DNA of 64,000 nt from IMG/VR virus record IMGVR_UViG_3300018079_000003, positions 1 to 64,000 of that record. The stretch is one strand, 5' to 3'. The translations under genes were made by a program, and so were the position numbers. Below, piece by piece: positions 1-61,222 of the stretch. Source of the DNA: a virus. Positions within the stretch are counted from its first letter, which is position 1. The number at the start of each line of letters is the position of its first letter. Under the pieces are notes generated by a model. That model saw only the letters and a list, made by a program, of their open reading frames with translations. It was not told the origin of the DNA and searched no databases.

Positions 1-345
1 CCCCGGTCAGAATCCAGCGGACATGTCGTAATAACTTTCGCGCGCGTGTCCGTATCCCCGTCTTTAATCTCCACCGCGCCGATTTCAATATCAGAAACCG
101 TGAGAGTTACCGTATCTCCCCCCCGCTCCCAAGCCTACTATCTCTTTCAGCCGGCCAAGAATCTTCTTAAGAAGATTATGCTCCCCGTCCCCGCACCTAT
201 ACTCTGTTTCGTAATCGCAAGCCATTTTTAACCCACTGTTTAAACCGCAACCACCAACCCACTTTTTTGTCCACTTTTTTGTCCGCTTTTTTGCCCACCC
301 GCAAGTATAGGACGTTTATTTTAACCCGCTCTCGCAGAAAAAGAA

Positions 346-861: not shown

Positions 862-1121
862 CCGTGCTCCACCGCCCGCAGAAGATTCATCTGTCGCTTT
901 GCCTTAGCGGGAGTCGTAGCCTTGGCTTTTACTCCGTGGGGGGACGCGACTCGCACCCTACCGCCGCCAATGGGTTTTGTTTTGTAAGGCATTGTTTATC
1001 TCCGTGTTGAAGAACCGCATGAGTCATATCCACTGTCCAACCAAATTTCACCCCTTCAATGTAGGGCATAAGATCAACAATATTGTCCGCAGGCAGATCG
1101 CTCATACATAAAAACAGTGCG

Positions 1122-2048: not shown

Positions 2049-2079
2049 TTCTTAATTCGACTTGCTTGAAATTGAATAT

Positions 2080-4676: not shown

Positions 4677-4763
4677 TTACGGCATCCCCCGGAACGCATC
4701 CGGTGCGCTAGCATTTGCGCCAACCCACGATAAAATTGGTCGTCAGAGAAGGCCCGCCCCACG

Positions 4764-4835
4764 TCGCGGGGGATGGAGTCGAACCATCCGCCTCTTGGTT
4801 ATGAGCCAAACGAGCTACCGCTGCTCCATCCCGCA
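4764..4835 (-). tRNA. tRNA with CAU anticodon (elongator Met, or Ile2 if lysidine-modified)
   Basis: Hand-folded cloverleaf: D stem GAGC/GCTC, anticodon stem TTTGG/CCAAG, loop CTCATAA, T stem GATGG/CCATC, T loop TTCGACT. The acceptor stem has a U1:G72 wobble and an A7:C66 mismatch. No CCA is encoded. Confidence 0.8.
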
Positions 4836-4886
4836 TAATAGCCCGCACCTAAACTCGCTCATTACAAACGGTGGGCGGGCCATAAA

Positions 4887-5246: not shown

Positions 5247-5248
5247 AA

Positions 5249-5443: not shown

Positions 5444-5445
5444 AA

Positions 5446-5575: not shown

Positions 5576-5609
5576 AAGAAACAGTGGACTGGATTGCGGC
5601 AATTGGCCA
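5576..5609 (-). promoter_or_regulatory. CCACTGTTTCTT motif copy (candidate phage-specific promoter)
   Basis: Minus strand reads TGGCCA-N17-CACTGT-TTCTTTGTT-ATG. The 12-mer (5576..5587) is identical to three other copies. Confidence 0.45.
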
Positions 5610-6800: not shown

Positions 6801-6829
6801 TTGACTGTTTAAACAGTTTATGCGATAGT
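6801..6829 (+). promoter_or_regulatory. Sigma70-type promoter, leaderless configuration
   Basis: TTGACT-N17-GATAGT, with ATG 6835 five nt after the -10. The spacer begins with GTTTAAAC. Confidence 0.55.
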
Positions 6830-6834
6830 GCGGT

Positions 6835-7086
6835 ATGAAAAAGATATCACAATACACTGACAGCGGAGGGGGTAACGGAGTAATTGACTATCCAGTGAAC
6901 GAATACGTGGTGCTGGGAAATCGGCTATTTCGTAAAATTGGAATGCAAAAAGTGCCGGTTCAGTGTCACTGGTTTACTAACAAGGAAGGCTCCTGTTTAA
7001 TGGACCAGTGGGGTTTCACGCATCAGATTGACTATCCGGTGAACGATTTGACAACGTTTAAACCATCTGATAATATAACAATATGA
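6835..7086 (+). CDS. Early hypothetical protein (cassette A)
   Basis: 83-aa ORF with an internal IDYPVN repeat. Its N-terminus MKKISQYTD is shared with 8364..8525. ATGA overlap with the next gene. Confidence 0.5.
   Translation: MKKISQYTDSGGGNGVIDYPVNEYVVLGNRLFRKIGMQKVPVQCHWFTNKEGSCLMDQWGFTHQIDYPVNDLTTFKPSDNITI
7048..7076 (+). promoter_or_regulatory. Sigma70-type promoter, leaderless configuration
   Basis: TTGACA-N17-TAATAT, with ATG 7083 six nt after the -10. It is embedded in the 3' end of the preceding ORF. Confidence 0.65.
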
Positions 7087-7361: not shown

Positions 7362-7407
7362 AATAAATTTGACAACCCAATCAAAAAAAATCTACTGAAA
7401 GGATCAA

Positions 7408-7650: not shown

Positions 7651-7657
7651 TAAAAAT

Positions 7658-7686
7658 TTGACAACGTTTAAACAATCTGATACTAT
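7658..7686 (+). promoter_or_regulatory. Sigma70-type promoter, leaderless configuration
   Basis: TTGACA-N17-TACTAT, with ATG 7693 six nt after the -10. Near-duplicate of 7048..7076. Confidence 0.65.
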
Positions 7687-7692
7687 AACAAT

Positions 7693-8037
7693 ATGACATA
7701 CAACCAAGCAATCGAAAAACTCGGAAACCGTGAGCAGAAAAAGATCGCTAACAATACCTACCTTTGCCGAAGGCAGGATGGGGCAGTGGCGGTCCGGCTG
7801 CATGCGACAGACATCCTGACCTTCCGGCCTGATGGTAGTGTGGTTCTTACCACTGGCGGCTGGCGTTCGGTGACCACCAAGGCGCGCTTGAACGCCTACT
7901 GCCCCATCGGGCGCGGGATTGGCCAACGGGCCGGCGTGTGGTATCACGGCTCAACTAAGGTTGAAATGATGGAAGGCGACCGCATCAATGAAGCCACGGG
8001 CGCAGTTTGGCGCACGGACGGCACCGTGGTGCTTTAA
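7693..8037 (+). CDS. Early hypothetical protein (cassette B')
   Basis: 114 aa. Shares promoter and N-terminus with 7083..7361, then diverges. Confidence 0.55.
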   Translation: MTYNQAIEKLGNREQKKIANNTYLCRRQDGAVAVRLHATDILTFRPDGSVVLTTGGWRSVTTKARLNAYCPIGRGIGQRAGVWYHGSTKVEMMEGDRINEATGAVWRTDGTVVL

Positions 8038-8067
8038 TTGGCTCGGCCATATTACTGAAAGGATCAA

Positions 8068-8367
8068 ATGAAAATTGAAATTATAGGCGCGAGGGTGATT
8101 GTCCGCAAAGAGGAATCGGACAAACGGTTCCGAAGTGATTCGCAGTTCTTCTATGCGCTGCGCAACGCATTGCGCGCGCAAGGCCGCGACGTGATTAAGA
8201 AGCTGATGGCCAAGGATGGTCACATGGTCAGCGCGGGTGTTTACTACATCCGCGACCGCAAAGGCGCGTATGCAATTCATGACCAAAACTATCAGATTGC
8301 TAGCGCGGCAGAAGACTTTAATAAGGATGGATTCGTAAATCTCAGACTTGAGCGATTGTCGGCATGA
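8068..8367 (+). CDS. Early hypothetical protein (cassette C')
   Basis: 99 aa. Paralog of 7408..7650 with the same ACTGAAAGGATCAA upstream sequence. Confidence 0.6.
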   Translation: MKIEIIGARVIVRKEESDKRFRSDSQFFYALRNALRAQGRDVIKKLMAKDGHMVSAGVYYIRDRKGAYAIHDQNYQIASAAEDFNKDGFVNLRLERLSA

Positions 8368-8525
8368 AAGAATCACAATACACTGATAAATATTTTATTC
8401 GGGACGGCATTCAAATCGCAATGATCGTCGATGAAGTGGCGCGCGATTACGCCCGGTGTTCGGCTTCGGATGCGGTAAAGGCGAGCTATGATGCGGCCCG
8501 GCAATCCGCAAGTGCGGTTCTATAG
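8364..8525 (+). CDS. Small early protein (53 aa, cassette A')
   Basis: Hand-translated and below the ORF-track cutoff. ATGA overlap with 8068..8367. N-terminus MKESQYTD resembles that of 6835..7086. Confidence 0.4.
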   Translation: MKESQYTDKYFIRDGIQIAMIVDEVARDYARCSASDAVKASYDAARQSASAVL

Positions 8526-8552: not shown

Positions 8553-8580
8553 AGCCCGGCCTGAGAAGCCGGGCTTTTTG
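8553..8580 (+). terminator. Rho-independent terminator
   Basis: AGCCCGGC-ctgagaa-GCCGGGCT followed by TTTTT, at the convergence with the minus-strand genes. Confidence 0.7.
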
Positions 8581-8619
8581 CTGTCCGTAAAATTCATCGT
8601 GTGGTCAACTTCCCAAAAC

Positions 8620-9288
8620 TTAGTGGTCATCATTATCATGAGGATTATCAACCGGCTCGGGGTTCGATTTCTTCGCGGAATCAATAATTGCCTGCCCTAC
8701 CTGAAGCTGGGCATCAAAAAGTTGTGCTCGCGGCGTGTTGCTCGCCCCGGCCTTGCGCATCGCCTCGGCAATCTTAACATGCATTTCGCCTGCCGCAATA
8801 GTTCCCTCTGCCCCTTCGTTGCGTTTTGCCCGGTCTTGGGCCGTGTCGGATAAAGCTAAATAACTTAAAGCATGGGCTTTCTCAATTGCGCTCGCCAAGT
8901 CGGCTAATGCCCTTGTAACTAATTTAGGATATATCACGCCGTTCTTATCAGGATGAAAAAACAAATAGTCATCCACCTCTTTTGGTGTAAGGGCCATGAG
9001 TTTTGAAACAACTTTCTCGACAAACATACGAAAGCGATGCGCTTGGACAAAGTTCATCGCCCGATTTATACTGCGCTCAATATCACCGGGCTTACTGGAT
9101 TTTTTCAATTCAAGGATGCCCTTAAGCTTATCGTTCCATGAATCTTCATCCGCGATACGCAGCACGTCCAGAGCGCGCACGCCTAGCGCATGGGCGGTGC
9201 GTTCGAGGTCGCCCGTAAACGCCGCATAAAGCAAAAATGCGTTCTCGCGATCCACTGGCAATTCTTCATTCATTGCGCTTCGCTCCAT
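8620..9288 (-). CDS. HTH DNA-binding protein, possibly small terminase-like
   Basis: The N-terminal segment AFLLYAAFTGDLERTAHALGVRALDVL looks like the HTH found in small terminases. The rest is helical with an acidic tail. This is an impression only. Confidence 0.3.
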   Translation of the reverse strand: MERSAMNEELPVDRENAFLLYAAFTGDLERTAHALGVRALDVLRIADEDSWNDKLKGILELKKSSKPGDIERSINRAMNFVQAHRFRMFVEKVVSKLMALTPKEVDDYLFFHPDKNGVIYPKLVTRALADLASAIEKAHALSYLALSDTAQDRAKRNEGAEGTIAAGEMHVKIAEAMRKAGASNTPRAQLFDAQLQVGQAIIDSAKKSNPEPVDNPHDNDDH

Positions 9289-9532
9289 TTTTGGCCCACC
9301 AGTCCGCGCGCTTTTTGTACCGCATATTTGCCCGCGCTTTGCGCTCCAACTCCCGAACCTCGGGCCGCATATTCTCGAAAAGTTTATCTGCCGGAATTTT
9401 CTTCACACGAAACAGTGCATCCATCAGGGCGAATCGGCGATCCGAAAATAGACGGCATGGCGGTTCGGCGCATCGAAAATCATCACGAAAAATAGCCCAG
9501 CGCAGCGCCCAATAATAAGCACATATAGACAT
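9266..9532 (-). CDS. Hypothetical basic protein
   Basis: 88-aa ORF overlapping the start of 8620..9288. An alternative start is Met37 (9424). Confidence 0.35.
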   Translation of the reverse strand: MSICAYYWALRWAIFRDDFRCAEPPCRLFSDRRFALMDALFRVKKIPADKLFENMRPEVRELERKARANMRYKKRADWWAKNGAKRNE

Positions 9533-9800
9533 TAAAGTGGTCTTTCCGGTCCTGTAATCCTTTTCTTACAAGAAAAATAATAAATATGGGGTGGGGAAAA
9601 ACACGGCCCCTAGAGGTGGAAACCTCGAAATGTGGTGGATGTAGACGTTAGCCAGCAATTTGTAATATCCCATCGCTGTAAGTGGCTCGGCGACAAGGCG
9701 ATCCAACGAAAAATCGTAAAACGGAAAGTCTTGCCGGTGGGCAATATATACCCGTATACAGGAATGTGAAAATACTTGTGGCGCTTTTGTCTAACCGGCT

Positions 9801-9812
9801 CCACTGTTTCTT
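9801..9812 (+). promoter_or_regulatory. CCACTGTTTCTT motif copy (candidate phage-specific promoter)
   Basis: Exact 12-mer. ATG 9817 follows CACTGT by 9 nt, as in the copy at 5576. Confidence 0.45.
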
Positions 9813-15006: not shown

Positions 15007-15468
15007 ATGATCGAGTGGACGCCAGAAAACTCCGCGCCGCCACCGCCACCGCCACCCGCGAATTTATTTTTCGCGTGGCTGGTTATTCCCTCCATGTGGG
15101 CGATGCAACCGCGCGATCAGGTTGAGGCGCAAGCCATGCGGGATTTTAATGTGCGACTGATGGAGGTCAATCTCGCCCGCTGGAATTTGGAGATTCTTGA
15201 GCGGTGTCAGAAGTGTTTTGGCGCTTTGATTTACCGCGAGCCGGGTTCGATGCTGTCCTGCGGTGCGGCCCAAGTGTGTGACTATTTTTTCGCTCGTGAT
15301 CGTAAAGAATCATTGGTTTATACATGGCTGCCTCGCGAACGGCAATTTCGCATGGTAGATCAGGACTGGGTAGATTTACGTAGGTTTGCATCGGATTCTC
15401 TGTGCTCGGCGTTGGAAGACTTAAAACTCTTCTCTCGTAATGGCGATTCTTTTTACAAAAAGATTTGA
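15007..15468 (+). CDS. Hypothetical protein with a poly-Pro tract
   Basis: MIEWTPENSAPPPPPPPA.... ATGA-coupled start. Its TGA stop lies inside the next TTGACA. Confidence 0.45.
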   Translation: MIEWTPENSAPPPPPPPANLFFAWLVIPSMWAMQPRDQVEAQAMRDFNVRLMEVNLARWNLEILERCQKCFGALIYREPGSMLSCGAAQVCDYFFARDRKESLVYTWLPRERQFRMVDQDWVDLRRFASDSLCSALEDLKLFSRNGDSFYKKI

Positions 15469-15493
15469 CACAGTTTTAAAAATCTGCGATATT
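15465..15493 (+). promoter_or_regulatory. Sigma70-type promoter, leaderless configuration
   Basis: TTGACA-N17-GATATT, with ATG 15500 six nt after the -10. Confidence 0.6.
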
Positions 15494-21458: not shown

Positions 21459-23008
21459 ATAGACTCCGCGACCATCAGGTTCAACCGGCGCAACGACTGC
21501 TCGAAATCCTTCAGCACAACCGAACGGCGGCGGATTTTTCGGATACAGGCACCGGCAAGACTTACGTGGCGGCGGCGGTGGCAAAGTCGCTCGCCCTGCC
21601 TACGCTGGTCGTGGTCCCCAAGATTGCGATTAACCAATGGCACCGGGCCGCAGAACATTTCGACGACTCCATAAGTGTAATTAATTATGATATGTTACGC
21701 ACGGGACGGACTCCCTACGGCAGGTGGGATAACAATCCGCCGCCCGGCTTTATTCACGAAGAACGCTATGTTTGCCAGTGCTGCCAGCAAAAAGTGGACC
21801 TTGAAAATTATTCTCCCTGCTATACGCACCCACAAGGCGTGCATTGCTTGGTGATAAAAAAGACTCCGTGGAAGTATGGTAAATTCCATTTTCACCCCGG
21901 TGTGAGTCTTATAGTTTTCGACGAGGGACACCGTTGCGGCTCGCTCGATAGCCTCAACGCCGGTCTTATGATCGCGGCCCGGCGCGACGTGCCAAAGGGG
22001 CTGGTGCTGACCGCCACGGCGGCGTGCAGTCCTCTACAAATGCGCGCGCTGGGGTATTTTTTGGACCTGCATACTTTAAATTATGATGTTCTGGCCCGCC
22101 CGCCGGTCCGTCAAAAGAAAAATTTCTACTCGTGGGTGGCTCGTTATGGGGTTCGACGCGAGCCGATGCGTGGTTTGCAATGGCACGTAGGCGCGGAGCA
22201 ACAGCGGGTAATTATGGCGGAAATTCGGAAAGAAATTATCCCGGCCCGTGGAGTGCGGGTTTGCGTGGACGATATTCCCGGTTTTCCTGAAAGAGAAATT
22301 ATAAGTGAATTATATGACTTCGACGAAGTTGATAAAATTAACGGACTTTACGATGAGATGGCTGATGCACTCAATCGTTTGGAACGGACGCAGGTGGGCG
22401 ATGTATGTCCCGACCACCCACTTACTCGAATACTCCGCGCTCGACAAAAGATTGAACTGCTCAAAGTCCCAATTGGAGTTGAGTTGGCACGAGACTACGT
22501 GGCCAAAGGATATAGTGTCGGGCTGTTCGTCAATTTCCGGCAGACCCTTGACGCACTCCGCGAGCGGCTTGGACTTAAATGCATTATTGACGGCTCCCCG
22601 GCTGGGCAGCGTAATCGGCAATGGAGTATCGACGTTTTCCAATCGGACGTGGAGCGCGTTATTGGGGTAAACAACGAGGCCGGGGGGCTGGCCCTGTCAC
22701 TCCCGGACTTGCATGGAAAACACCCCCGAGTGGGGATAGTTTTCCCCTCGGAAAAGGCCAAGACTATGCGCCAGATATTCGGGCGATTCCATCGGGACGG
22801 CAGCAAGTCCAAGTGTTTTTATCGGGTGATCCTCGCCGCCCGGACATACGAAACATCCCTGCACCGGAACCTCCGCAATAAATTGAACAATCTCGACGCC
22901 TTAAATGACGCGGACCTGATGCCCGATAATCTGGTCTTGACCAAGTCTTCTTTTCCGTCCACTAATTATTTGACAACCCAATCGACTCATGATAGTCTTG
23001 TTTTATGA
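21440..23008 (+). CDS. SNF2/DEAD-like helicase
   Basis: Motif I DTGTGKTY, motif II VFDEGHRC, and a C-terminal helicase-lobe-like region. Confidence 0.75.
   Translation: MSPEILNRLRDHQVQPAQRLLEILQHNRTAADFSDTGTGKTYVAAAVAKSLALPTLVVVPKIAINQWHRAAEHFDDSISVINYDMLRTGRTPYGRWDNNPPPGFIHEERYVCQCCQQKVDLENYSPCYTHPQGVHCLVIKKTPWKYGKFHFHPGVSLIVFDEGHRCGSLDSLNAGLMIAARRDVPKGLVLTATAACSPLQMRALGYFLDLHTLNYDVLARPPVRQKKNFYSWVARYGVRREPMRGLQWHVGAEQQRVIMAEIRKEIIPARGVRVCVDDIPGFPEREIISELYDFDEVDKINGLYDEMADALNRLERTQVGDVCPDHPLTRILRARQKIELLKVPIGVELARDYVAKGYSVGLFVNFRQTLDALRERLGLKCIIDGSPAGQRNRQWSIDVFQSDVERVIGVNNEAGGLALSLPDLHGKHPRVGIVFPSEKAKTMRQIFGRFHRDGSKSKCFYRVILAARTYETSLHRNLRNKLNNLDALNDADLMPDNLVLTKSSFPSTNYLTTQSTHDSLVL
22970..22998 (+). 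promoter_or_regulatory. Sigma70-type promoter, leaderless configuration
   Basis: TTGACA-N17-TAGTCT, with ATG 23005 six nt after the -10. It lies inside the helicase 3' end. Confidence 0.55.
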
Positions 23009-25373: not shown

Positions 25374-25592
25374 ATGGCAGATCGACAAGCACAAAATTGT
25401 AACTGGGACGTTCGAGACGATGACGGCACAATTACGTGGGAACGTGCGGGTATTGCGGTGCTGATGGATATTCGTCGAGAATTAAAGACGCTTAATCAGA
25501 TTTTGCACTGTCAGAATTTTCTTGCCATCCCGCATAAGCTGGACCGCATTCGGATCAATACCACCCGGCGCAAGCGCCGAAGAAAGATTTGA
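25374..25592 (+). CDS. Small hypothetical protein with a basic tail
   Basis: 72-aa ORF. Its TGA stop lies inside the next TTGACA. Confidence 0.4.
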   Translation: MADRQAQNCNWDVRDDDGTITWERAGIAVLMDIRRELKTLNQILHCQNFLAIPHKLDRIRINTTRRKRRRKI

Positions 25593-25617
25593 CAGTGTTT
25601 AAACTTTGTGCTATACT
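25589..25617 (+). promoter_or_regulatory. Sigma70-type promoter with a very short leader
   Basis: TTGACA-N17-TATACT, with ATG 25627 nine nt after the -10. The spacer contains GTTTAAAC. Confidence 0.6.
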
Positions 25618-27204: not shown

Positions 27205-29210
27205 ACCACATAAGTTTAGATTTTGAGACGTTTTTCAGTCGGAAGTTGAAATATGGCCTTCGGACTATGATTGCCGAGACATATTGTCGGCATCCTCTTT
27301 TTGATCCATATTTAATTTCGGCCTGTGATGGCACAACTTCGTGGGTCGGGCATCCTCGGGATTTTAATTGGGACTCTTTACGGGGCCGAAGTATCGTGGC
27401 ACACAATTGGTTTTTCGAGAAGTCGGTAATCATGGAAATGGAACGGCGGGAGTGGATTCCCCCGGTTCTAGCACATATCAAAGAGGCCCACTGTAGTGCG
27501 AATCTTACCGCTTACTTTTGTAACCGTCGCGCACTTGATCAAGCCGTGGAATATCTTTACCAAGTCAAGGTGTCCAAAGACGCCCGTGGAAATGCCGATG
27601 GCAAACACTGGCCCAAAGATTTTTCCCCAGAGGAACAAAAGACGATGTTGGAATACGCAAAGGGTGACGGCTGGTGGTGTTGGAAGTTGTGGGAAGACCA
27701 CTCATCCAAGTGGCCGCAGATGGAACGCGAGTTGAGCCGCATCACGATTGACCAAGGCTTGCGTGGCTGTCAGATCAACGCTGAATTGTTAGATACTTAC
27801 ATCGTGCAAACCCACGAGATGAAGGCCAACACGGAAAAAGTTTTACCATGGATGGGACGCGCGGAAGATGAAGACGACGAGTCGTGGGAAGACTTTAACC
27901 GGAAGCCCACCTCAACCAAGTGCATCGCGGAACAATGTAAGCGATCCGGCATCCCGTGCTGCCCGGTCAAATCGGATGACGAAGAAGCCTACGCCGAGTG
28001 GGAAGCTCTCTATGCGCCCGCGCACCCGTGGATTCACGCGGTTGGTGCGTGGCGATCCGTCAACAAGCTTTACAAAACTTTTCTCAAGGTGAAGTCTCGA
28101 TTACGTGCGGATGGCACGATGCCCTTCGCGCTAAAATATTTCGGCGCGCATACGGGCCGGTGGTCGGGAGCCGAGGGCATAAATATGCAAAACCCCCGTA
28201 AGCGCCCGATCTTTTGTAACGAACACGGGCTGATGGAGTCTAAGGTTTTGCGGGAAGATGAGGCGTTGTCCTATAAAAAAGAAACCGGCGTGTGGCCTGC
28301 GTGGGTTCGGTTCGCGGTAGATTTTCGACATTTGATTGTTCCGAGACCCGGCAAGCGCATGGTCGTTTCGGACCTTAGCCAAATTGAGCCGCGCGTGCTT
28401 GCGTGGTTATGTGGTAACGCAGAACTGTTGGCACTCATGGCCCAAGGCATGACGCCATACGAAGCACATGCCAGAGCGACCATGGGTTGGACCGGCGATG
28501 TGTCTTTAAAAGATGCGGGTAAAATCGACCCGAAGGCGGAGTTAATGTATAAATTAGCGAAAGCGCGGGTGTTGGCGCTGGGCTATCAGGCGGGGTGGGA
28601 AAAATTTGTTGTTATGGCATTGGATACGGGGTTGGATATTACAAAAGACGATCCCGAATTCATTGAAGTGACGTGCCCAATTACGGGTAAAACCAAACAG
28701 GTGAGCGGCTACGGCACAACCAGCAAAAAGATAGTCGCGGAATTTAGAGAACAGAACCCCAAGATTAAGGGTTTGTGGGAACACCTAGATAGTGCGTTTA
28801 AACGATCCGTGGGTTCAGATTTTTCTATGACCTTGCCTAGCGGGCGGGTGATGAAGTATGACAAGGTGCGTTGTGAAATCTGCATCGAAAAGGACAAAGA
28901 GACAGGCAAACCCAAGCGGCGGTCGGTTTTCACCGCAGATATTGGGGGCCGACGTAAGATTATTTACGGTGGACTTTTGACTGAAAATATCACACAAGCA
29001 GTTGCGCGGGACGTGTTTGCGTGGCATATTGTGAATATGGCTCGGCGCGGTTGGTTGAATTTATTTTCGGCCCATGACGAAGCGATCCTCGAAGTGGACG
29101 CCGACGTGAGCGCGAAGGACGTGGAACAGGAAATGAGTCGATGCCCGGAGTGGATTCCGGGGTTGCCGGTTGCCGCCGAGGCTAAGATCGTCCCGCACTA
29201 TTTAAAATGA
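27201..29210 (+). CDS. Family A DNA polymerase with a 3'-5' exonuclease domain
   Basis: ExoI SLDFET. Motif A VVSDLSQIEPRVLA, motif B KLAKARVLALGYQAG, motif C SAHDEAILEV. Confidence 0.85.
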   Translation: MNHISLDFETFFSRKLKYGLRTMIAETYCRHPLFDPYLISACDGTTSWVGHPRDFNWDSLRGRSIVAHNWFFEKSVIMEMERREWIPPVLAHIKEAHCSANLTAYFCNRRALDQAVEYLYQVKVSKDARGNADGKHWPKDFSPEEQKTMLEYAKGDGWWCWKLWEDHSSKWPQMERELSRITIDQGLRGCQINAELLDTYIVQTHEMKANTEKVLPWMGRAEDEDDESWEDFNRKPTSTKCIAEQCKRSGIPCCPVKSDDEEAYAEWEALYAPAHPWIHAVGAWRSVNKLYKTFLKVKSRLRADGTMPFALKYFGAHTGRWSGAEGINMQNPRKRPIFCNEHGLMESKVLREDEALSYKKETGVWPAWVRFAVDFRHLIVPRPGKRMVVSDLSQIEPRVLAWLCGNAELLALMAQGMTPYEAHARATMGWTGDVSLKDAGKIDPKAELMYKLAKARVLALGYQAGWEKFVVMALDTGLDITKDDPEFIEVTCPITGKTKQVSGYGTTSKKIVAEFREQNPKIKGLWEHLDSAFKRSVGSDFSMTLPSGRVMKYDKVRCEICIEKDKETGKPKRRSVFTADIGGRRKIIYGGLLTENITQAVARDVFAWHIVNMARRGWLNLFSAHDEAILEVDADVSAKDVEQEMSRCPEWIPGLPVAAEAKIVPHYLK

Positions 29211-29608
29211 GGCGTTGTTCTTCTTGTCGTAAGGTTAAGCCGTTGCCGGAATTTTATAAGGCAGCGGCCAAAGCGAATCGGGGTTATCAATACAACTGTA
29301 AGCGGTGCTGTTGTGGCTTAGCGCATAGTTGGCGACAAAGAAATCCCCGCCGCGAACGATCCATACAACTTAAGAAAAATTATGGTATTACGATCCAACA
29401 GTTTGAGGCCGTGGAAAGGTGTCAAAAAAGACGCTGTGCAATTTGTAAGAAGCGCGCTAAATTGACGGTCGATCATTGTCACGCTCGGTTAGTTGTGCGG
29501 GGCCTTCTTTGTGCCAAATGTAACGCTGGAATCGGGTTGCTTTGTGATTCGATAACTATTTTACAATCCGCTATTGTGTATCTATCTCCCGATGTTCTTC
29601 GCGACTGA
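29207..29608 (+). CDS. Recombination endonuclease VII
   Basis: CAICKK....LTVDHCH....VRGLLCAKCNAGIG, the T4 endonuclease VII family signature. Confidence 0.8.
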   Translation: MRRCSSCRKVKPLPEFYKAAAKANRGYQYNCKRCCCGLAHSWRQRNPRRERSIQLKKNYGITIQQFEAVERCQKRRCAICKKRAKLTVDHCHARLVVRGLLCAKCNAGIGLLCDSITILQSAIVYLSPDVLRD

Positions 29609-31781
29609 AAATTTAACGACGAAATCCGTATCTCCGTGCGATCCGTGGACCTTCATTCCGCCGCAGCAAGTGTCGAAACAAATCCGGCACGATAAACAAA
29701 GTCGCCAAGACTGGTATCGTAATATTGACACCCAATGGAATTTTTATACGCCGCTCGAAGCGTCCAACCCGAACCAGCGAGTCAGTAACGAAGATAACCC
29801 GTCGAAATTCATTCACGGCTTCGCGGCGGACTATGACGTGAAGATTCCCATGTCGCGCGTGTTGGAAGTTGTCGCCGCGATGGATATAAAGCCGTCGTGG
29901 ATCGAAACCTCGCTGGGCGGTAAAATCCGGCTGGTGTGGCTATTTCTCAAACCGTTGCGGGTGGACGGCACGGATTTTTGTATTTTCTTACTTGAACGCG
30001 CCATGAAGTGGTTGCGTCTGGATTTATTGCCGGGCCTTGATGAAGGCGCTTTCACTGACCCAACCCGGCTGTTGTGCAACGGCGGAGAGTGGCTGGCCAC
30101 TGGACACGGTCCACTCGCTGAGGTGCCATTGCAGGTATTTTACATCGGGGTCGCTCGCGACTTTCAGTTTGTCTCTACCGACCTCGCCGAGGTGCCGTTG
30201 GATGTCGTGGAAGAAAAAATCAAGGAAAAATATCCGAATTTTAGCTGGCCCGGCGAATTTGCGTATGAGACACAGGGGCCGTCGTTTTGGATACCGGAAT
30301 CAAAGTCGGCTATGTCGGCTATCGTCAAAAAGGACGGCATGTTTACCTTCTCGGATCATGCCGACAAGTCTTTTTACTCTTGGGGCGATATTTGTGGTGT
30401 CGATTTTCTCAAGGGCCACGCCGACAACGCGATTGCGGTTGCTACTAAAGATATTTATTGGGATCAGAAGAATTTTTGGAGGAAGAAGTCCGGTTTCTAT
30501 GCGCTCATGGGGATGACCGAGCTACAAAACTTTTTCAAAGTCCAGTGCCGTCTCAGCGCCAAGCCGGGCAAATCCGGCCAGTCTCCGGTTGATCTGGCGC
30601 TCTACCATATCTATACGACCAACTGTATCATCGGCGCGGGACCGTTTGTGTTTAAACCCTCCGGGTTAATGGAGTATATGGGCCGACCCGTGTTAAATAC
30701 TTACATACCGCGCGCGCTCGTCCCCGCAGCGGGCGAACAGAAATGGGGTCCAGATGGTAATTTTCCGTTTCTCTCCCAACACTTCGACGTGTTATTTGAT
30801 CCCGTCTATCAAAAAAAATTTTTTCTGGCGTGGTGGAAACATTTTTATACTTCGGCATATACGCTGACGCCGATGCCCGGCCCGAATGTCTATCTGGTCG
30901 GCGGCACGGATGTGGGCAAGACGATGACCAGTCGGGCAATCATTAGTCTGTCGGTGGGTGGCTTTGTGGATGCTTCCGGGCATCTGATCGGCGGCGAGTC
31001 GTTCAATTCACACATCTACGAAAAACCGCTGTGGGTGATTGACGATGAAGTCGTGGGCGACAACTCAGCGGCGCAAACCCGATTTCATGCGATCTGGAAA
31101 AAGACCGCCGCCAACCAACAATTTTTGTTTAGTAAAAAATACGAGGTGCCCTTGACAATTGATTGGATGGGTCGTATCTTTTGCACGTTGAATATGGATT
31201 ATATTTCCAGCCGAATCATGGGGCCGATGGACGGCTCGGTGATCGACAAGACTTGCGCGTTCCGCTGCCCCGCTGTTTCAAAAATTATTTTCCCCTCCCG
31301 ATACGAACTGGAAAAAATCATTGCTTGTGAACTGCCTTACATGCTTCGTTGGCTGCTGGACTGGGAGCCACCCGACTACGTGCTGCGGGATGTCCGGTAT
31401 GGATTCAAGTCTTATCAAGAGTCTTCCCTGCTCGACAAAGCCCATCAGGGCGGTAAGTCTGCACCCTTCAAGGAATTGTTGATCGAGGTGTTGCAGAATT
31501 ATTTTATTCAGGAGAAAAACGCAACAGAATGGCGCGGCACGGTTACACAACTCCTGCGGATGTTGCAGACCAACCCCCATAACGAATCCATTCTGCGGCT
31601 GTTGCGATTGGAACAGACCAATCGCTACCTCGAAATGATCCAACGCGAAGCCCTCGTGGAATGCACCGTCGAGACCGGTCCGATGAAGACCCGCGTGTGG
31701 GTCTTTGCCCGGTTCGGCGATTTGCCGCCCGCTGTCACGCCCGCTTTATTAACCCCCACTCATAACCCCTTTACGAAATGA
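29592..31781 (+). CDS. Primase / SF3 (D5-like) helicase
   Basis: Walker A GGTDVGKT and Walker B WVIDDEV in the C-terminal half, with a large primase-like N-terminal half. Start taken at ATG 29592. Confidence 0.65.
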   Translation: MFFATENLTTKSVSPCDPWTFIPPQQVSKQIRHDKQSRQDWYRNIDTQWNFYTPLEASNPNQRVSNEDNPSKFIHGFAADYDVKIPMSRVLEVVAAMDIKPSWIETSLGGKIRLVWLFLKPLRVDGTDFCIFLLERAMKWLRLDLLPGLDEGAFTDPTRLLCNGGEWLATGHGPLAEVPLQVFYIGVARDFQFVSTDLAEVPLDVVEEKIKEKYPNFSWPGEFAYETQGPSFWIPESKSAMSAIVKKDGMFTFSDHADKSFYSWGDICGVDFLKGHADNAIAVATKDIYWDQKNFWRKKSGFYALMGMTELQNFFKVQCRLSAKPGKSGQSPVDLALYHIYTTNCIIGAGPFVFKPSGLMEYMGRPVLNTYIPRALVPAAGEQKWGPDGNFPFLSQHFDVLFDPVYQKKFFLAWWKHFYTSAYTLTPMPGPNVYLVGGTDVGKTMTSRAIISLSVGGFVDASGHLIGGESFNSHIYEKPLWVIDDEVVGDNSAAQTRFHAIWKKTAANQQFLFSKKYEVPLTIDWMGRIFCTLNMDYISSRIMGPMDGSVIDKTCAFRCPAVSKIIFPSRYELEKIIACELPYMLRWLLDWEPPDYVLRDVRYGFKSYQESSLLDKAHQGGKSAPFKELLIEVLQNYFIQEKNATEWRGTVTQLLRMLQTNPHNESILRLLRLEQTNRYLEMIQREALVECTVETGPMKTRVWVFARFGDLPPAVTPALLTPTHNPFTK

Positions 31782-32509
31782 AAAATGGACACCGGAGAAA
31801 AACGGGTAATTCGGCGCATAACGATTTATTGCGGGGAATTCCTGAGACCCGCTTAAGCCTTGAGCAGGAGAGCGCGCTTTCTGACAAGATTCAGGCCAGC
31901 AAAAAATCCGATGAGGACTCAATAAATGCTCTGGCGCTGCACAACCTGCGCGAAGCCTTCTATTATGCCCTCGCTTGTTCAAAGACGCTGCCCCCGGACG
32001 ACGTCTACAGCCTTTGCTACGCGGCCCTTCGATACGCCGCCACCAATTTCAAATACCGAGGCGCGCGTTTTTTCCCCTACTCTAAGGCGTATATCCGGGG
32101 AGAAATCTATAAAACATTTAATGATCGAAACGTCGTCAAAGATGCCATTTGCGAACCGTTGCGTTTAGGGGACGAGGAAATGGTTAGAGAGATCGAAGAG
32201 TCGGAAAACGGCCACCCCCTTAGTTTGCGCCGCCCTCGTAATTTTATTGAGCCTACCGTCGAGTCGGACCTTCATGGGATCGTCATCCGGGATGAGTGGG
32301 GGCGGATCAAGCCGATTTTTCGGGACAAACTCTCTGAAAAGGAGCGGATGGTGTTGGAATTGAAATTCGAGGGCGGATTCAACTTTAGAGAAATCGGCGA
32401 TTTACTGCGGGTCTCCCGGTCGGATACACAGGCGACACACACGCGGGCTTTGAGAAAAGTGCGTTGTGTGCTGATGAGAAAAAAGGCACTATTTAATAGA
32501 CACCAATGA
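31778..32509 (+). CDS. Sigma-70 family RNA polymerase sigma factor (two-domain)
   Basis: Region 2-like F..YSKAYIRGEIY. Region 4 HTH ERMVLELKFEGGFNFREIGDLLRVSRSDTQATHTRALRKVR. Confidence 0.75.
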   Translation: MKNGHRRKTGNSAHNDLLRGIPETRLSLEQESALSDKIQASKKSDEDSINALALHNLREAFYYALACSKTLPPDDVYSLCYAALRYAATNFKYRGARFFPYSKAYIRGEIYKTFNDRNVVKDAICEPLRLGDEEMVREIEESENGHPLSLRRPRNFIEPTVESDLHGIVIRDEWGRIKPIFRDKLSEKERMVLELKFEGGFNFREIGDLLRVSRSDTQATHTRALRKVRCVLMRKKALFNRHQ

Positions 32510-35399: not shown

Positions 35400-38300
35400 T
35401 TAGTGCGCCAATTTGCGCGGTTTGACGAGGGATTCTGCAAGGGCGTTTGCTGCCGCCTGTTCATCTACCCGTCTTTCTGCGTTTTGTTTGGGGGAAAAAA
35501 TAATTTCGTAAGGATCAGATTTTGTGTTAAAATACCCCGTTCGTTGTTTTTTATCTCGATCCATAAATTTGAATCGTAAAACTTTTCCTCCACCCTCAGC
35601 CGGTTCTTCCGCTTCGATGATTACTTCCTGTTTTGGATATTTAATTAATTTAATTCCAGTATGGCGGGATGGAGTGACTTTGAGTCGGTCTCCGAGTTGC
35701 GGCGGTTGAAACTTCGCTGCGCCGACTTCCGGCAAACTCGTCGGCGGTTTGACAATTGATTCTTCTAGTGGAACCCACCCGCTTTCAGTCCACACTTCGG
35801 CACTTGTAATGGGGATTTTTTTAGTGGCATAATAATCTCCCGTCGATTCTTTTTTAAAATCTTTTGATTGCGGCAGGCGCAGCAACACCGGCTTTCCGTC
35901 TTCAGGAGCGAAGTGCCATGCGATATTAGCTTTGGTAGTCCAATATGATCTCTTTTCCGTAGATTTATCGGGCCAAGTTGATTGGTCCGTTCCATAAGAC
36001 GGGGGAAATATTAAAATATTTTTGGTGCGAAGGATGTCGCCTAGTCGCTCTTGATTACTCGCATGATAGACGTAGCCCGGATCAGTAGGAGTTTTGGAAT
36101 CGGGACTTTTCAGGGCATCCCAAAATTCTGGAGGTTGGAACGTCACGCCGACATCCGGGAGACCCGCCGTGTCGATTTCCTTGTTATTATAAAAAACTTT
36201 CAGGCCCTTCGTGACTGCGGCGTCTTCGATAGCCCCCCGTTGCGCGCGCGGCAGGGTTTCCCACCGGCCTGGACCCTCGATTCCGATAGTGTTTTCGTCC
36301 ACGTTGTAGGCGCGCAGGAATTTTCGCGCCCCCATAACTTCGTATAACTTCTCAACACCCCCCACGTCCATATCCCGCGCTAATTTATCAAGGTCAATAT
36401 CCAGATCACGCGCCGTATTAAGTTCATACGCCGCTTGCTCGTGACCTTCGGGCGCAAGAATTACGTCTCCCTTCGGGCCGATCCAATAGGCGGCTCCCGG
36501 ATCATTGCGCAACGCTGATTTCTTTTCCGCTCGTTCAACCGCCCTCTGGAATACTCGCTTCTTCGGTTGTAGTTGCACGGGCGCATCTTCGGCTATTTGC
36601 GCGGGTCTGTCAATTGGAAATTTTGGCTGGTATTTAGGGTTGATTTGACGAAAATGAAACCCCGCAGAGCCTTCGCCCGTGGCGGCTTCCCACGCCTCAC
36701 GAAAAAATTGTTGCTGGGCCACGACGTTCATCGCCGAATCAATGTCTGTTTGGATAAGTGCTTCGGCGCGTTTCCCAAAAGAATCGGAAGCGGCTTTTAG
36801 TAATTGAACAAACTCAGGAGTGGCCGATTTTAAGCCGACTGCGTGTGCGTATGTAGTGAATCCTTTTGTATCGGTTGCCCATTTACCGAATTCCTGCGGC
36901 GTCATCTTGGCGATGGATTTCACCAATTCTTCGGCCTGTTCCGCGTTTTTAGGCGGTTGAAATTTTGTTGCCGCCGCGTCAAGGGCGGCGTCTCTAACCG
37001 TTTTAGGAAGCTGACTGGTTTCTAATTCTTCCGTTGTGAGGCCCCGTGCTGTTTCTTCTGTCGCTTGACCGATTTCTTTAGCCCGGCTAAGAGCATCCGA
37101 GCGGTTAAGAAATTCACCGGCATGGGTCGTAAATCCATCAGTAAATGGACCTTCCGCGCCCACTACTCGGGCGTTTTGTTCTGCGTCTCCGTGCCAAAAA
37201 CCTTCCCAAATTTTACCGCGCTCGTCCCGGACGGCGGCTGATTTAATAGCTCGCGGCTCGGCACTAGGTTGAAATCGACGTAGTTGATCAAAATCAAAGG
37301 ATTCTAATGGATACTCGGGGTAGTCTTTTGGAACCTGTTCTAAATCCTTTGCTCGTTCAATTGCATCCGTGCGATTCAAGAACTCTCCCGAATGGGTGAT
37401 AAATCCGTCTTCTAGCCGGTTTAAAAAATCTTCTTTTGGAGAGTTATATGTTTCAAATTGGAGTCCCTTTGTGACCGCATCGGAATGAAACATACCCTCA
37501 TATATTTTTCCGCTTGGGAATCGAATAGCAGCCGATTTTATTGCACGAGGATTTTCTTTTTTAGGCTGAAATCCCGCTGACAAGGTCAACGTATTACCCC
37601 GAAATTGCGGCTGTTCCGGCGTGACCTGAAGCTGTTTGATATTTTCCAGATTCAACCGCTGTATGGCTTCAATAAATTCCGGCATCGCGATTCCTTTCGC
37701 TTGGGCGGCGGCTTCGATCTGCTGACGAAGCGGATTCACTTCCATAATTTCGCGACCGGCGATCCCCTGCCTCTCTGCCTCCGGCCCCTCAAACTTACCA
37801 CGGGGAATCACCGGCACCTCGACGCGGCCCGGCAGCGTCGCGGCGCTCACCTCTTGGGCGGCAATATTGAGCGGCAATTTTCCTTTTTGAATTCGCGCCG
37901 TATCCGGCAACCGAAAATTGAAAAGCATGTTGATGAAATCGGCGCGGCCTTGATCTAAGCCCGAAGCGGCCCCCCGCGGGGGAGGGGCGAAAAATCCCAC
38001 ATCCGTAACGCTCTTGGGGACCACAAGTGGCTCGCCCGCGCCGGTGCGACCGGCCATTTGATTTCTAACGAACTGTTCAGTATCTTTGAATAGTTGCTGC
38101 CAGCCCTCGGGGGTAAGGGTGTCCCCGGCGATAGGGTAAGGCGACGCATCGGCGACCCCCAACTCGACTAATTTCGACGCGAGTTTGTGCGCGTTGGCAG
38201 AAAATACTTCGGGCGACCAGCCTAGGATTTGGTATTTGTCGCCCTTCAGTTTGATGACCCGCTCGGGGAAGAAATTCTTTTCCCATAGCGCACGGGCTTC

Positions 38301-43897: not shown

Positions 43898-43931
43898 AGT
43901 AATTAGTGGATATTTTTTTACCTTTTGACAA
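43898..43931 (-). promoter_or_regulatory. CACT-type motif (TTGTCA-N17-CACTAA; CCACTAATTACT)
   Basis: Lies in the 60-nt gap upstream of 42932..43879. CACTAATTACT recurs at 35395..35405. Confidence 0.35.
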
Positions 43932-52897: not shown

Positions 52898-54196
52898 TCA
52901 GGTCAGATCAGCGCAAGGGTCTTCCTCGCACACACCAACCGTAGCGAACGCATCAGCCCCAGTGAAGCTAGAAGCCACCGGATCGGCGCAATCCACCAAG
53001 CCCAAGTCGGCAAGACAACGCTTATAAGCAATCGCAATGACGTGCTGCGGGCGCAGCGGTTTATACGCGCGGGTGATCTGATATTTGTGGAAACCAAAGT
53101 CGCCCCAAATATTGTTACAATCCATGCTGTAGAACCATTCCAATTCACCCATGTGGAGTTGCGGAGCAAACTTAAAGCTGCCCTCGCCCACGTAGCGTTC
53201 CGGCACCTGCCGCTCGAACGAACCGTCGGCAAGCAAGAAACCGATCTCGTAAAGAGCATCCGTCCAAGCCGGATTAACCTTCGCATACGCCGTTTTCTTT
53301 GCCGCGTTTGAGACAATAATAACCGGATTGATCAGCACCGGCATACCGGCACCATCCAAAACGTTAAACCGTAACGAACGTTGATCCACACCGAAGGCAA
53401 GACCACGATACGCGGGAGATTCCTCGAAACTGTAAGCCTTCAAGGTCGTTTCGCCGAGTTTGTAGCCGCCCGAGGTAAGACAACACATCGTATTCTGCAC
53501 GCCGACTTCGCTGCGGAAGTATTCGACTTGGTCCGCCCCGCCGATGAAGCGGAAGTGGCCCATGCCTTTGTCAGTCGAAAACCATTCGCCGAAAAGCTGC
53601 TCCCGAAGGTAGCGAGCGAGGTAGTGAAGCGCCTTGAAGGTCATCGGCCCGGTGGGCAGGATGGGCGCAAACTTAACGCCGAGATCGGTTTCGGACCCGC
53701 CCGTAAAGAGCGAATTGAAATCGAAGGTGGCGTTTGCTACGAACTTGGAAGCCGAACGCAAATACAACTGAGCGCGGATGTCCGCGTTGATGTATTGCAC
53801 GATCAACTTCTTGAGAGAGTCCTCGGCAGTCGTGTAGCTGGACTTGAAGGCCGAGTAACCCTGCTTGACGCAGATGTTGGGGCCGCGACCCCGAAACGAT
53901 TCCAGTTGGACCGTAAAATTGACGGTATCCGTCAGGTCTTGATGACCATTCAACCCGCAAATTTCGGTATCGCAAACGAAGGTCGGAATGGCGAGACTAT
54001 CGCCGGGAGCCGCCTGCATTTGAACAACGGAACGCTGTGAGTCGGAAGTGCCAGCGGGAAACGTCCCGCCGCCGATCACGTTCATAAAAACAGAATTGGC
54101 CGCGAGTGCTTTTGCGATTGCCCCGACAATTCTGTTATGGTCCTTACTAGCAATGTCTGAAATTTGTGACGGATCGTCACAGTATGAAACAGCCAT
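52898..54196 (-). CDS. Major capsid protein (by position)
   Basis: 432 aa, downstream of portal and scaffold. It is flanked by its own promoter-like motif and terminators, as expected for the most highly expressed gene. No motif check was possible. Confidence 0.6.
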   Translation of the reverse strand: MAVSYCDDPSQISDIASKDHNRIVGAIAKALAANSVFMNVIGGGTFPAGTSDSQRSVVQMQAAPGDSLAIPTFVCDTEICGLNGHQDLTDTVNFTVQLESFRGRGPNICVKQGYSAFKSSYTTAEDSLKKLIVQYINADIRAQLYLRSASKFVANATFDFNSLFTGGSETDLGVKFAPILPTGPMTFKALHYLARYLREQLFGEWFSTDKGMGHFRFIGGADQVEYFRSEVGVQNTMCCLTSGGYKLGETTLKAYSFEESPAYRGLAFGVDQRSLRFNVLDGAGMPVLINPVIIVSNAAKKTAYAKVNPAWTDALYEIGFLLADGSFERQVPERYVGEGSFKFAPQLHMGELEWFYSMDCNNIWGDFGFHKYQITRAYKPLRPQHVIAIAYKRCLADLGLVDCADPVASSFTGADAFATVGVCEEDPCADLT

Positions 54197-54347
54197 ATAT
54201 GTAAACCTTTAACACGAGGCAAATTTTCCGTCGCCTCATCCGGTTGCAGCAAACAATCCGCCGCAAGGATGTATTGTGTTTTTCGTTGTGGCCATCAACG
54301 AAAATTAAGGCCGTCTCGGAAGCGCCAACCCGAGAATTAGGCGCTCA

Positions 54348-54381
54348 AAGAAACAGTGGGAAGTATAAGAAGAAAGGTCAA
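54348..54381 (-). promoter_or_regulatory. TTGACC-N17-CACTGT promoter candidate with a CCACTGTTTCTT 12-mer
   Basis: Starts immediately after the terminator T-run and lies ~150 nt upstream of the capsid ATG. Confidence 0.55.
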
Positions 54382-54384
54382 CTA

Positions 54385-54413
54385 ATAAAAAGGCGGTCGA
54401 AAATCGACCGCCT
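54385..54413 (-). terminator. Rho-independent terminator
   Basis: Minus strand reads GGCGGTCG-atttt-CGACCGCC followed by TTTTTATT. Confidence 0.7.
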
Positions 54414-54437
54414 CCAACATACAAAATTTTTGTAGTT

Positions 54438-54665
54438 TTATGCCTCAGACACGCATAGCACGAGCCGGAGCAAAGTCGCAATTGGCTCGTCCCGCAATCC
54501 CTCCTGTAGGGTGCCGGGGCACCCGCACGTAAACCCGCACTCACTGCTAAAGATACGCTCAAGTTCGTCCGACGTTCGCTGATCGAGAAATTTACTGGCC
54601 GGACCCTGCCGGAGATAGTTGATCAACCAAGTGAGTTGGGCCTGTTGCTCTGCCGTTAATGTCAT
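54438..54665 (-). CDS. Small hypothetical protein
   Basis: 75-aa ORF lying between a promoter motif and a terminator. Confidence 0.45.
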   Translation of the reverse strand: MTLTAEQQAQLTWLINYLRQGPASKFLDQRTSDELERIFSSECGFTCGCPGTLQEGLRDEPIATLLRLVLCVSEA

Positions 54666-54681
54666 AAATTTTTAAGGTTAC

Positions 54682-54715
54682 AAGAAACAGTGGGTCGCCA
54701 AAGAAAAAAGGTCAA
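54682..54715 (-). promoter_or_regulatory. TTGACC-N17-CACTGT promoter candidate with a CCACTGTTTCTT 12-mer
   Basis: Same architecture as 54348..54381, placed 21 nt upstream of ATG 54665. Confidence 0.55.
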
Positions 54716-61193: not shown

Positions 61194-61222
61194 TCAGTGG
61201 CGTTTTTTGGGCCGTTTGTCAC
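61194..61222 (-). promoter_or_regulatory. GTGACA-N17-CACTGA promoter candidate
   Basis: Lies 12 nt upstream of portal ATG 61181 and overlaps the stop of 61219..61500. Confidence 0.4.

Follow-up and report, generated by a model that had tools for sequence, protein, structure and literature searches.

The question addressed here is whether a short repeated sequence in the genome of an uncultivated phage marks promoters and, if so, which sigma factor reads them. The sequence, the 12-mer CCACTGTTTCTT, recurs in a stretch of 64,000 nucleotides (nt), positions 1 to 64,000 of the IMG/VR virus record IMGVR_UViG_3300018079_000003; this whole stretch is referred to below as the window. The phage genome, of approximately 69 kilobases (kb), is also represented by an ENA contig of 69,179 nt, and locus L040 provided 5,232 nt of it that lie beyond the window. 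A preliminary description of the window had proposed the 12-mer as a promoter motif for a sigma factor encoded by the phage itself. Comparative sequence analysis indicated that the motif sites are very probably promoters of a bipartite, sigma-70-family type, with the consensus T(T/G)G(A/C)C(A/C)-N17-CACT(G/A)(T/A)-TT. These sites are termed class II, the host-type promoters of the same genome being termed class I.

Four exact copies of the 12-mer were found in the window, all where they had previously been reported:

54348..54359, minus strand: exact copy in the candidate class II promoter of a 432-amino-acid (aa) capsid-like gene, with TTGACC at 54381..54376, a 17-nt spacer and CACTGT at 54358..54353
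54389..54415, minus strand: intrinsic terminator (12-base-pair (bp) stem and T run), adjoining that promoter on its upstream side
54682..54693, minus strand: exact copy in the candidate class II promoter (54687..54715, TTGACC-N17-CACTGT) of a 75-aa open reading frame (ORF; 54438..54665)
5576..5587, minus strand: exact copy in the candidate class II promoter TGGCCA-N17-CACTGT (5581..5609, 15.6 bits), before the start codon (ATG, 5571) of a 41-aa membrane protein
9801..9812, plus strand: exact copy in the candidate class II promoter TGGCGC-N17-CACTGT (9779..9807), before an ATG at 9817 and at the head of a plus-strand gene block

The capsid, portal and terminase labels used here were assigned by gene size and position only, and Pfam, PHROG and PDB yielded no match backing the capsid or portal labels. 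None of 100 dinucleotide-preserving shuffles of the window contained a match to the 12-mer, in line with the earlier statement that it should be expected far less than once in 64 kb. A fifth exact copy was present in the same genome outside the window (L040, 9451..9462); a terminator-like hairpin lies immediately upstream of it, and the gene that precedes the putative terminase begins 88 nt further on. The 12-mer itself comprises a -10-like hexamer and flanking bases (C-CACTGT-TTCTT).

Both local copies (54348 and 54682) read TTGACC-N17-CACTGT, and each directly follows a stop codon or a terminator, as had been described. The copy at 54682 begins 4 nt beyond the TAG stop codon of a 242-aa gene, and the capsid-gene copy, 156 nt from its ATG, is located directly 3' of the strong terminator (54415..54389). 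Across -35 element, spacer and -10 element the two are identical at 31 of 38 positions, from which it follows that they probably arose by duplication rather than in two independent events. The copies at 5576 and 9801 have 20 nt in common, and the -35 heptamer of the latter, GTGGCGC, has an identical counterpart at a CACTGT site of the relative L030. Similarities of this kind would favour a reading in which the copies are non-functional repeats that spread via duplication, and the behaviour of the orthologous sites in other phages makes that reading extremely improbable.

A search with the capsid-like protein yielded 23 related loci, and the upstream region could be aligned in 17 distinct phages (56–83% protein identity). 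At the orthologous capsid-gene site, the aligned relatives shared the pattern (G)TTGAC(N), exactly 17 variable bases and (C/G)AC(T/C)nn: TTGA was present in 12/12 and the full TTGAC in 10/12, and the base directly after the hexamer was T in all 12. Hexamer positions 2 and 3 were A and C in 17/17 orthologous sequences (16 relatives plus the window); position 1 was C or G, position 6 varied (T, C or A), and C at position 3 was invariant. The sequence of the spacer drifted among the relatives and its length stayed at 17 nt. When a weight matrix based on 12 orthologous sites in other phages, and on these alone, was applied to the window, the capsid-gene site (54353..54381, minus strand) was the best match; the matches at 54345 (24.1 bits), 22936 (19.7 bits), 54679 (18.6 bits) and 5573 (15.6 bits) ranked first, second, third and fifth. 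Thus, the site has been kept in 17 phages despite divergent spacers. In addition, the same architecture recurs before non-homologous genes in several genomes, and all copies are co-oriented with genes and close to their starts, which further argues against inert repeats.

De novo motif discovery, one of the checks suggested in the preliminary description, was carried out over 510 gene starts from the window and its relatives. CACTAT (8 observed, 0.36 expected) and CACTGT (7 observed, 0.41 expected) were the most enriched hexamers 5–10 nt upstream of these starts. The -35 region was assessed at 24 non-redundant sites, taken from 12 loci that represent 11 distinct phage genomes; these sites matched [CG]ACT[GA][TA]TT and had an ATG 3–14 nt downstream, the -35 region being ignored in the choice. 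These blind-chosen sites carried G at -21 (22/24), C at -19 (17/24) and T at -23 (16/24), a base bias that indicated a T-t-G-c-C -35 element at exactly N17; they also showed an A-rich tract at -9 to -6. Within the window, 9 of the 17 occurrences of CACT[GA][TA]TT lay 3–25 nt upstream of a co-oriented start, a location for which 1.6% of positions qualify (p = 1.3e-12). Three of the motif copies come after a terminator or stop codon, and two stand at the head of divergent transcription units. In the relatives' loci the plain 8-mer showed no strand bias; an element this short lacks specificity by itself.

Weaker members of the class, or sequences resembling it, were distributed as follows:

1103..1119, minus strand: relaxed copy CACTGTTTTTATGTATG, an internal, leaderless-type candidate site with CACTGT at 1114..1119, then TTTTATGT and an ATG at 1105
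61194..61222, minus strand: relaxed candidate GTGACA-N17-CACTGA, 12 nt before the ATG (61181) of a 683-aa putative portal gene
35400..35405, minus strand: class II-like CACTAA-TTACTAT-ATG at the stop of a 1827-aa gene, with the ATG (35392) 7 nt further on
43903..43908, minus strand: class II-like CTTGTCA-N17-CACTAA-TTACTGT, intergenic, before a 315-aa gene
22937..22965, plus strand: class II-like TTGACC-N17-CACTAA (19.7 bits), second-best match of the relatives-only matrix
29196..29201, plus strand: CACTAT-TTAAA-ATG where the PolA gene ends, ahead of the genes for the 133-aa protein, the 729-aa protein and sigma
32487..32492, plus strand: class II-like CACTAT-TTAATAG in the 3' end of the sigma gene, before a 179-aa gene
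9412..9417, minus strand: CACTGTTT (8-mer at 9410), a weak candidate just past the annotated ATG of a 52-aa minus-strand ORF
234..241, plus strand: CACTGTTT, antisense within a minus-strand gene and probably a chance match

The relaxed copies reported earlier, at 61194..61222 and 1103..1119 on the minus strand and at 234 (plus) and 9410 (minus), were thus all present. An equivalent of the CACTAT after polA was also found in L024 and L028, and the orthologues of the 32487 site in L024 and L030 read GACTGT and CACTGT.

Together, the footprinting across relatives, the -35 element fixed at 17 nt, the de novo enrichment of the -10 and the placement of the sites all favoured the proposal that the motif is a promoter. 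A -35-like element 16–18 bp from a -10-like element, as in bipartite sigma-70-family promoters, was found, and the sites were co-oriented with genes and intergenic or at operon heads. The combination T1, A2 and T6 of a host primary-sigma -10 was absent from class II sites, at which a standard scan detected no sigma-70-type promoter.

Many copies lie 5–13 nt before an ATG, a distance that is also typical of Shine-Dalgarno sequences, and one could therefore imagine that the motif works at the RNA level, marking a processing site or standing in for a ribosome-binding signal upstream of start codons. This is very improbable. A DNA element resembling a -35 at fixed spacing would be meaningless in RNA, and the capsid-gene copy, at 156 nt from its ATG and after a strong terminator, would rarely be included in upstream transcripts. 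Two copies, moreover, head divergent units with no co-directional transcription upstream of them, and genes with leaders use another, purine-rich signal (GAAAGG or AGAAAG) instead. It is likewise improbable, if slightly less so, that CACTGTTTCTT is the operator of a phage regulator overlapping promoters and not itself the -10. Exact identity over 12–14 nt does exceed what most -10 elements need, and the spacers of several class I promoters also carry a conserved palindrome (GTTTAAAC). However, the motif itself lacks palindromic symmetry, the -35-like element always lies 17 nt from it, its distance to the ATG equals that of a class I -10, and no other -10 could be found at the 54348, 54682, 5576 and 9801 sites.

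Several known promoter types were considered and rejected. The sigma-54, sigma-28, T4-late and phiEco32 consensus sequences were not enriched at gene starts in the window. The phiEco32-type consensus had nine window matches with at most one mismatch, none of them tied to a gene start; the T4-late sequence TATAAATA occurred as a single exact match, inside a gene; and sigma-28 GCCGATAA-like sites showed no association with gene starts. A promoter for a single-subunit phage RNA polymerase was likewise set aside: the motif is bipartite at N17, and no such polymerase was found among the large proteins scanned, of which the 729-aa protein is unannotated.

A second set of promoters in the genome follows the consensus TTGAC(A/T)-N17-(T/G)AnnnT, always on the plus strand:

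6801..6829, plus strand: class I promoter TTGACT-N17-GATAGT, ATG 5 nt downstream
7048..7076, plus strand: class I promoter
7658..7686, plus strand: class I promoter
15465..15493, plus strand: class I promoter
22970..22998, plus strand: class I promoter
25589..25617, plus strand: class I promoter

At class I promoters the ATG lies 5–9 nt past the -10 element, and their genes would, judging from this layout, be expressed from leaderless mRNAs. The gap between CACTGT and ATG is 8–9 nt at 5576, 9801 and 1114 and 5–13 nt at most class II sites, and this match with class I indicates that CACTGT sits at the -10 position. The earlier observation that the ATG follows CACTGT by 9 nt at both 5576 and 9801 was therefore accurate as to distance and implies leaderless or near-leaderless mRNA, a geometry that class II has in common with class I. 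The palindrome GTTTAAAC in the class I spacers is possibly an operator; a class I promoter with this spacer is conserved in L024 (8669) and L030 (8868). At 22936..22998 on the plus strand, a class II-like site and a class I promoter (TTGACA-N17-TAGTCT, 22970..22998) form a tandem pair at the helicase gene's 3' end, ahead of a 59-aa gene at 23005.

The two classes differ in their location with respect to the gene blocks of the window:

197-5571, minus strand: gene block
5735-8525, plus strand: gene block
8620-9424, minus strand: gene block
9817-34608, plus strand: gene block with RNA ligase, ATPase, helicase, PolA and sigma genes
34802-63961, minus strand: gene block with tail and structural genes

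In L040 the block from 5571 to 197 runs on co-oriented through a resolvase and the putative small and large terminase genes into the structural block, and consequently the 5576 copy heads a single minus-strand unit of approximately 40 kb. This unit contains at least eight class II sites. No class I promoter was found upstream of its genes, three intragenic matches being the only occurrences of the class I consensus. Class I promoters occurred only within the early and replication region. The plus-strand cluster from 9817 onwards has a class II site at its head and no class I promoter before 15465, and relaxed class II sites also occur in the replication block at 22960, 29196 (upstream of the sigma operon) and 32487. 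Separate genome parts and a different conservation of the -10 element thus bear out the distinction that had been drawn between CACTGT and the TAnnnT of the early promoters. The suggested temporal switch to the motif would fit the packaging and structural unit, which class II covers; with sites at the head of the plus-strand cluster and in the replication block, the class is not purely late.

The phage does, as reported, encode its own sigma factor, an assignment based on family matches and on clade-wide synteny:

31778..32509, plus strand: 243-aa sigma-70-family factor with Pfam, PHROG and TIGR matches

Its FliA-like region 4 matched Pfam PF04545 (Sigma70_r4; 37.6 bits, cut-off 24.1, 1.6e-9), residues 25–240 matched PHROG 351 'sigma factor' (6e-15), and residues 49–229 matched TIGR02937 with 39.7 bits, just under the cut-off of 42.9. 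A precomputed Pfam match for region 2 (PF04542) was available for several members of its clade, so that both the region 4 helix-turn-helix and region 2 of a sigma-70 protein were found. Profile searches gave approximately 61 close relatives (E ≤1e-45), each on a metagenomic contig no longer than 75 kb; below these, at 1e-10, came cellular FliA/WhiG. The gap from 1e-45 to 1e-10 places the protein, as far as sequence comparison can tell, in a phage-only clade nearest to FliA/WhiG. It did not fall within the FliA subfamily itself, as TIGR02479 scored 35.9 bits against a cut-off of 189.6 and in region 4 only. In 43 of the 46 polA loci whose PolA identity was 43% or higher, the sigma gene followed polA by 2–3 kb; the remaining three (L047, L109 and L119) end too close to polA to tell. 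By tblastn, no sigma was detected in 33 polA loci with 33–38% identity. Single-protein searches with the sigma and with a 368-aa protein returned no loci, and alignment-based searches were needed.

Three considerations point to this sigma factor as the reader of class II. The conservation of the -10 element, with C3 and the following T invariant and position 6 free, is unlike that expected for a primary sigma; the two promoter classes segregate in the genome; and no further repeated motif of promoter type came to light that the sigma factor could use. Furthermore, its region 2.3–2.4 differs from that of primary sigma at residues aligned with those that contact the -12 position.

The main alternative is that class II promoters are read by the host primary sigma, either alone and weakly or with a phage activator or appropriator resembling T4 MotA/AsiA, and that the targets of the phage sigma lie elsewhere. 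A number of observations speak for it or otherwise weigh against the explanation preferred here. The -35 half (TTGACC, TGGCCA, TGGCGC), resembling TTGACA and placed at the canonical 17 nt, looks like that of a host primary sigma, so that only the -10 specificity would have changed. CACTGT, like CACTAT, retains A2 and T6, the two bases most important to a primary sigma. One class I promoter reads TACTAT, such that a continuum between class II and host-type -10 elements is conceivable. The most distant relative, L023, has TTGCTT-N17-CATAAT at the orthologous site before the same leader. The exact identity of the 12-mers is owed in part to the duplication of the two local copies, and class II sites at the head of the plus-strand cluster and upstream of the sigma operon do not provide a clean 'late' marker. 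A comparison of relatives with and without the sigma gene gave 10 versus 1 occurrences of the 8-mer with an ATG, and 10.1 versus 3.8 of the 8-mer alone per 100 kb, but both figures are confounded by host type. In PolA relatives in which no sigma was detected, ribosome sites are of the canonical AAAGGAG type (loci L072-L117 vs L044-L118), probably reflecting another host type, whereas the sigma-carrying clade shows weak AGAAAG or GAAAGG signals and leaderless starts, which suggests two host lineages. In more distant sigma-carrying phages CACTGT was not the top hexamer, and only scattered GACTGT/CACTGT sites had the full architecture.

Against the host-sigma alternative stand the 17 orthologous sites, in which variation at position 6 combined with an invariant C3 and T after the hexamer is the opposite of primary-sigma preference, the location of the two classes in separate genome parts, and the maintenance of the sigma gene across the clade with no other repeated promoter-like motif to serve it. 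We consider this alternative rather unlikely. The link between the phage sigma and the class II motif is circumstantial and, taken by itself, just on the probable side.

The explanation as a whole, a phage-specific promoter class most likely read by the FliA-like sigma of the phage, appears reasonably probable. In the proposed mechanism, bacterial RNA polymerase with a sigma-70-family factor would bind the -35-like element through region 4 and CACTGT through region 2, and transcription would start approximately 7 nt past the hexamer, a predicted start site. Where the ATG follows the hexamer by 5–9 nt (5576, 9801, 1114, 35400 and 29196), the mRNA would be leaderless or have a leader of 1–3 nt; the capsid-like gene transcript would begin directly with a structured leader. 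Class I promoters of the early and replication region would first direct synthesis of the FliA-like sigma (31778..32509), which may then activate the plus-strand cluster from 9817 and the 40-kb packaging and structural unit and reinforce expression of its own operon.

The leader RNA of the capsid-like gene is the most novel by-product of the analysis. It was predicted to fold as follows:

54284..54345, minus strand: double-pseudoknot leader RNA, starting 7 nt past CACTGT, with the leader continuing to the ATG at 54196
54345..54340 with 54326..54321, minus strand: stem S1
54335..54330 with 54319..54314, minus strand: stem S2
54312..54309 with 54293..54290, minus strand: GGCC:GGCC pairing of linker and hairpin loop
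54300..54296 with 54288..54284, minus strand: hairpin

The element consists of an H-type pseudoknot with interleaved stems (S1 and S2, each 5–7 bp), a conserved linker ACGGCCUA and a hairpin with a GGCC loop; ACGGCCUA and the GGCC:GGCC pairing were invariant among 17 phages. In 17/17 phages the structured RNA starts 4–11 nt after the hexamer, which fits the predicted transcription start. An unsupervised pseudoknot search recovered the arrangement in 16/17, L010 giving a downstream GGCC pseudoknot instead, and no pseudoknot score fell below the 95th percentile of natural 70-nt windows. S1 and S2 were represented by 14 and 15 distinct stem sequences, respectively. In a handmade, N-padded alignment that was fitted to the structure, and whose figures therefore lean towards it, 98.8% of cells were paired and 16 of 23 pairs showed compensatory changes (77 cells), with a covariation score of 0.578 compared with 0.173 ± 0.019 in shuffles (0/500 as high) and 30–48% of cells paired in slid controls. 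MAFFT alignments misplaced the stems, and RNAalifold returned only the invariant GGCC:GGCC helix. Over 54197..54346 Rfam gave no match at the gathering threshold, and with E values of up to 10 allowed the one exception was a chance match to the ceN69 snoRNA (13.1 bits, E 9.9, 54188..54245) that overlaps the 3' end; other weak Rfam matches sit on the upstream terminator.

Among possible functions of the leader, stabilisation of the mRNA 5' end and autoregulation at the level of translation are the likeliest. Gene 32 mRNA of T4 likewise has a pseudoknotted 5' leader on a highly expressed phage gene, conserved in related phages. A survey of structured RNAs in viral contigs listed 10,006 candidates, some of them upstream of phage capsid genes (PMC10690425). 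The leader described here is characterised by its double pseudoknot and its invariant GGCC:GGCC and ACGGCCUA, and no Rfam model exists for it.

Other leaders were noted in the clade. Three capsid relatives with 41–43% identity (L019, L020 and L022) are without the pseudoknot leader and share another element, TTCATTTCCGGTGAT...hairpin...ATCACC, approximately 60–150 nt upstream of the capsid homologue. In L040 (9380..9545), the 88-nt leader of the fifth 12-mer copy ends with a 9-bp hairpin (GTGGGGACT...AGTCCCCAC) and a T run directly before the ATG of a 151-aa gene, an attenuator-like arrangement.

The surroundings of the capsid-like gene offered further observations. Promoter, 75-aa ORF and terminator (54389..54715, minus strand) form a moron-like cassette between the 242-aa and capsid-like genes. 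In L001, which has no cassette, the homologue of the 242-aa gene directly adjoins the capsid promoter, and the 75-aa protein had no tblastn match in any relative. Judging by its sequence, the promoter in this cassette appears to be a duplicate of that of the capsid-like gene. The 432-aa protein has at least 592 homologues, all metagenomic; an AlphaFold2 model built with 26 homologues had a mean confidence score (pLDDT) of 33 and was set aside. BLAST of the region or of the capsid-like protein found no relatives among 50,697 phage records, and no relatives of the protein were found in 185,579 species genomes, which gave no prophage or host lead.

Elsewhere in the genome, a tRNA-Met gene (anticodon CAT; 4763..4835, minus strand) lies within a class II-driven unit and could be an initiator tRNA in a genome whose mRNAs seem to be largely leaderless. 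L040 carries a serine recombinase gene (Pfam Resolvase, 8573..9277) within the co-oriented late unit, a short distance ahead of the packaging genes and itself preceded by trypsin-like and LamG-like genes. The 729-aa protein (29592..31781, plus strand), encoded between polA and sigma in all relatives (45–64% identity), had no Pfam or PHROG match.

A phage sigma factor with promoters of its own is textbook biology, SPO1 gp28 and gp34 and T4 gp55 being the classical cases. In SPO1, gp28 and gp33/gp34 replace the host sigma on the host core enzyme, with bipartite promoters of approximately 17-nt spacing and a temporal switch. Both hexamers of SPO1 promoters depart from the host consensus, whereas here only the -10 does and one sigma gene was seen in the window. 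At T4 late promoters (TATAAATA), the sigma-like gp55 redirects host polymerase to a distinctive late -10; these promoters have no -35 and require gp33 and the sliding clamp, in contrast to the -35 at N17 described here. FliA/WhiG (sigma-28), the nearest cellular relatives of the phage sigma, also use a long -10 (TAAA-N15-GCCGATAA), in a promoter sequence unlike the present motif. The phiEco32 factor gp36 is ECF-like (extracytoplasmic function), and the motifs of coliphage phiEco32 and Salmonella phage 7-11 are single -10-type elements not known to have a -35. The present sigma is instead nearest to FliA/WhiG, its promoters combine a host-like -35 at N17 with CACTGT where the phiEco32 and 7-11 motifs are tAATGTAtA and TGATGT-TATA, and its transcripts would be largely leaderless. 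These two phages are nevertheless the closest analogue. Their sigma promoters were also discovered as an over-represented repeat, a near-identical short motif before middle and late genes stands beside host-type early promoters, and both promoter types serve the sigma gene (PMC4331800). Context on the sigma cascade of Bacillus phage SPO1 is given in PMC13401047.

A literature search returned nothing relevant on CACTGT as a phage sigma promoter. Leaderless transcription units whose mRNA starts at or beside the AUG occur in the Thermus phages phiYS40 and P23-45. In mycobacteria, leaderless units have their start codon a few nt past the -10 (PMC4633059). The -10 elements of those systems are TAnnnT-like or extended, in contrast to CACTGT. 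What distinguishes the class II promoters is thus the host-like -35 at N17, the CACT(G/A)T-TT -10 and the mostly leaderless transcripts; they represent an otherwise familiar mode of phage gene control that uses a new sequence. A more comprehensive reading, which we hold only tentatively, is that of a large, entirely uncultivated clade of approximately 70-kb phages with a private FliA-like sigma that would redirect host RNA polymerase, combining a CACTGT-type -10, a host -35, mostly leaderless mRNAs and a new, covariation-supported leader RNA. This RNA could be an undescribed cis-regulatory element, for instance one that binds a protein for autoregulation, acts as a sensor or stabilises the 5' end.

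The finding provides a testable transcription map for a widespread uncultivated phage clade, in which host-type, leaderless early promoters would act first, followed by a second class, probably tied to the phage sigma, for packaging and structural genes. The new sigma lineage and TTGmCa-N17-CACTGT-TT could serve as an orthogonal sigma–promoter pair, and as a case for studying how -10 specificity changes when -35 recognition is retained. The leaderless gene layout, the tRNA-Met and the pseudoknotted leader of the main structural mRNA hint at an unusual control of translation in these phages.

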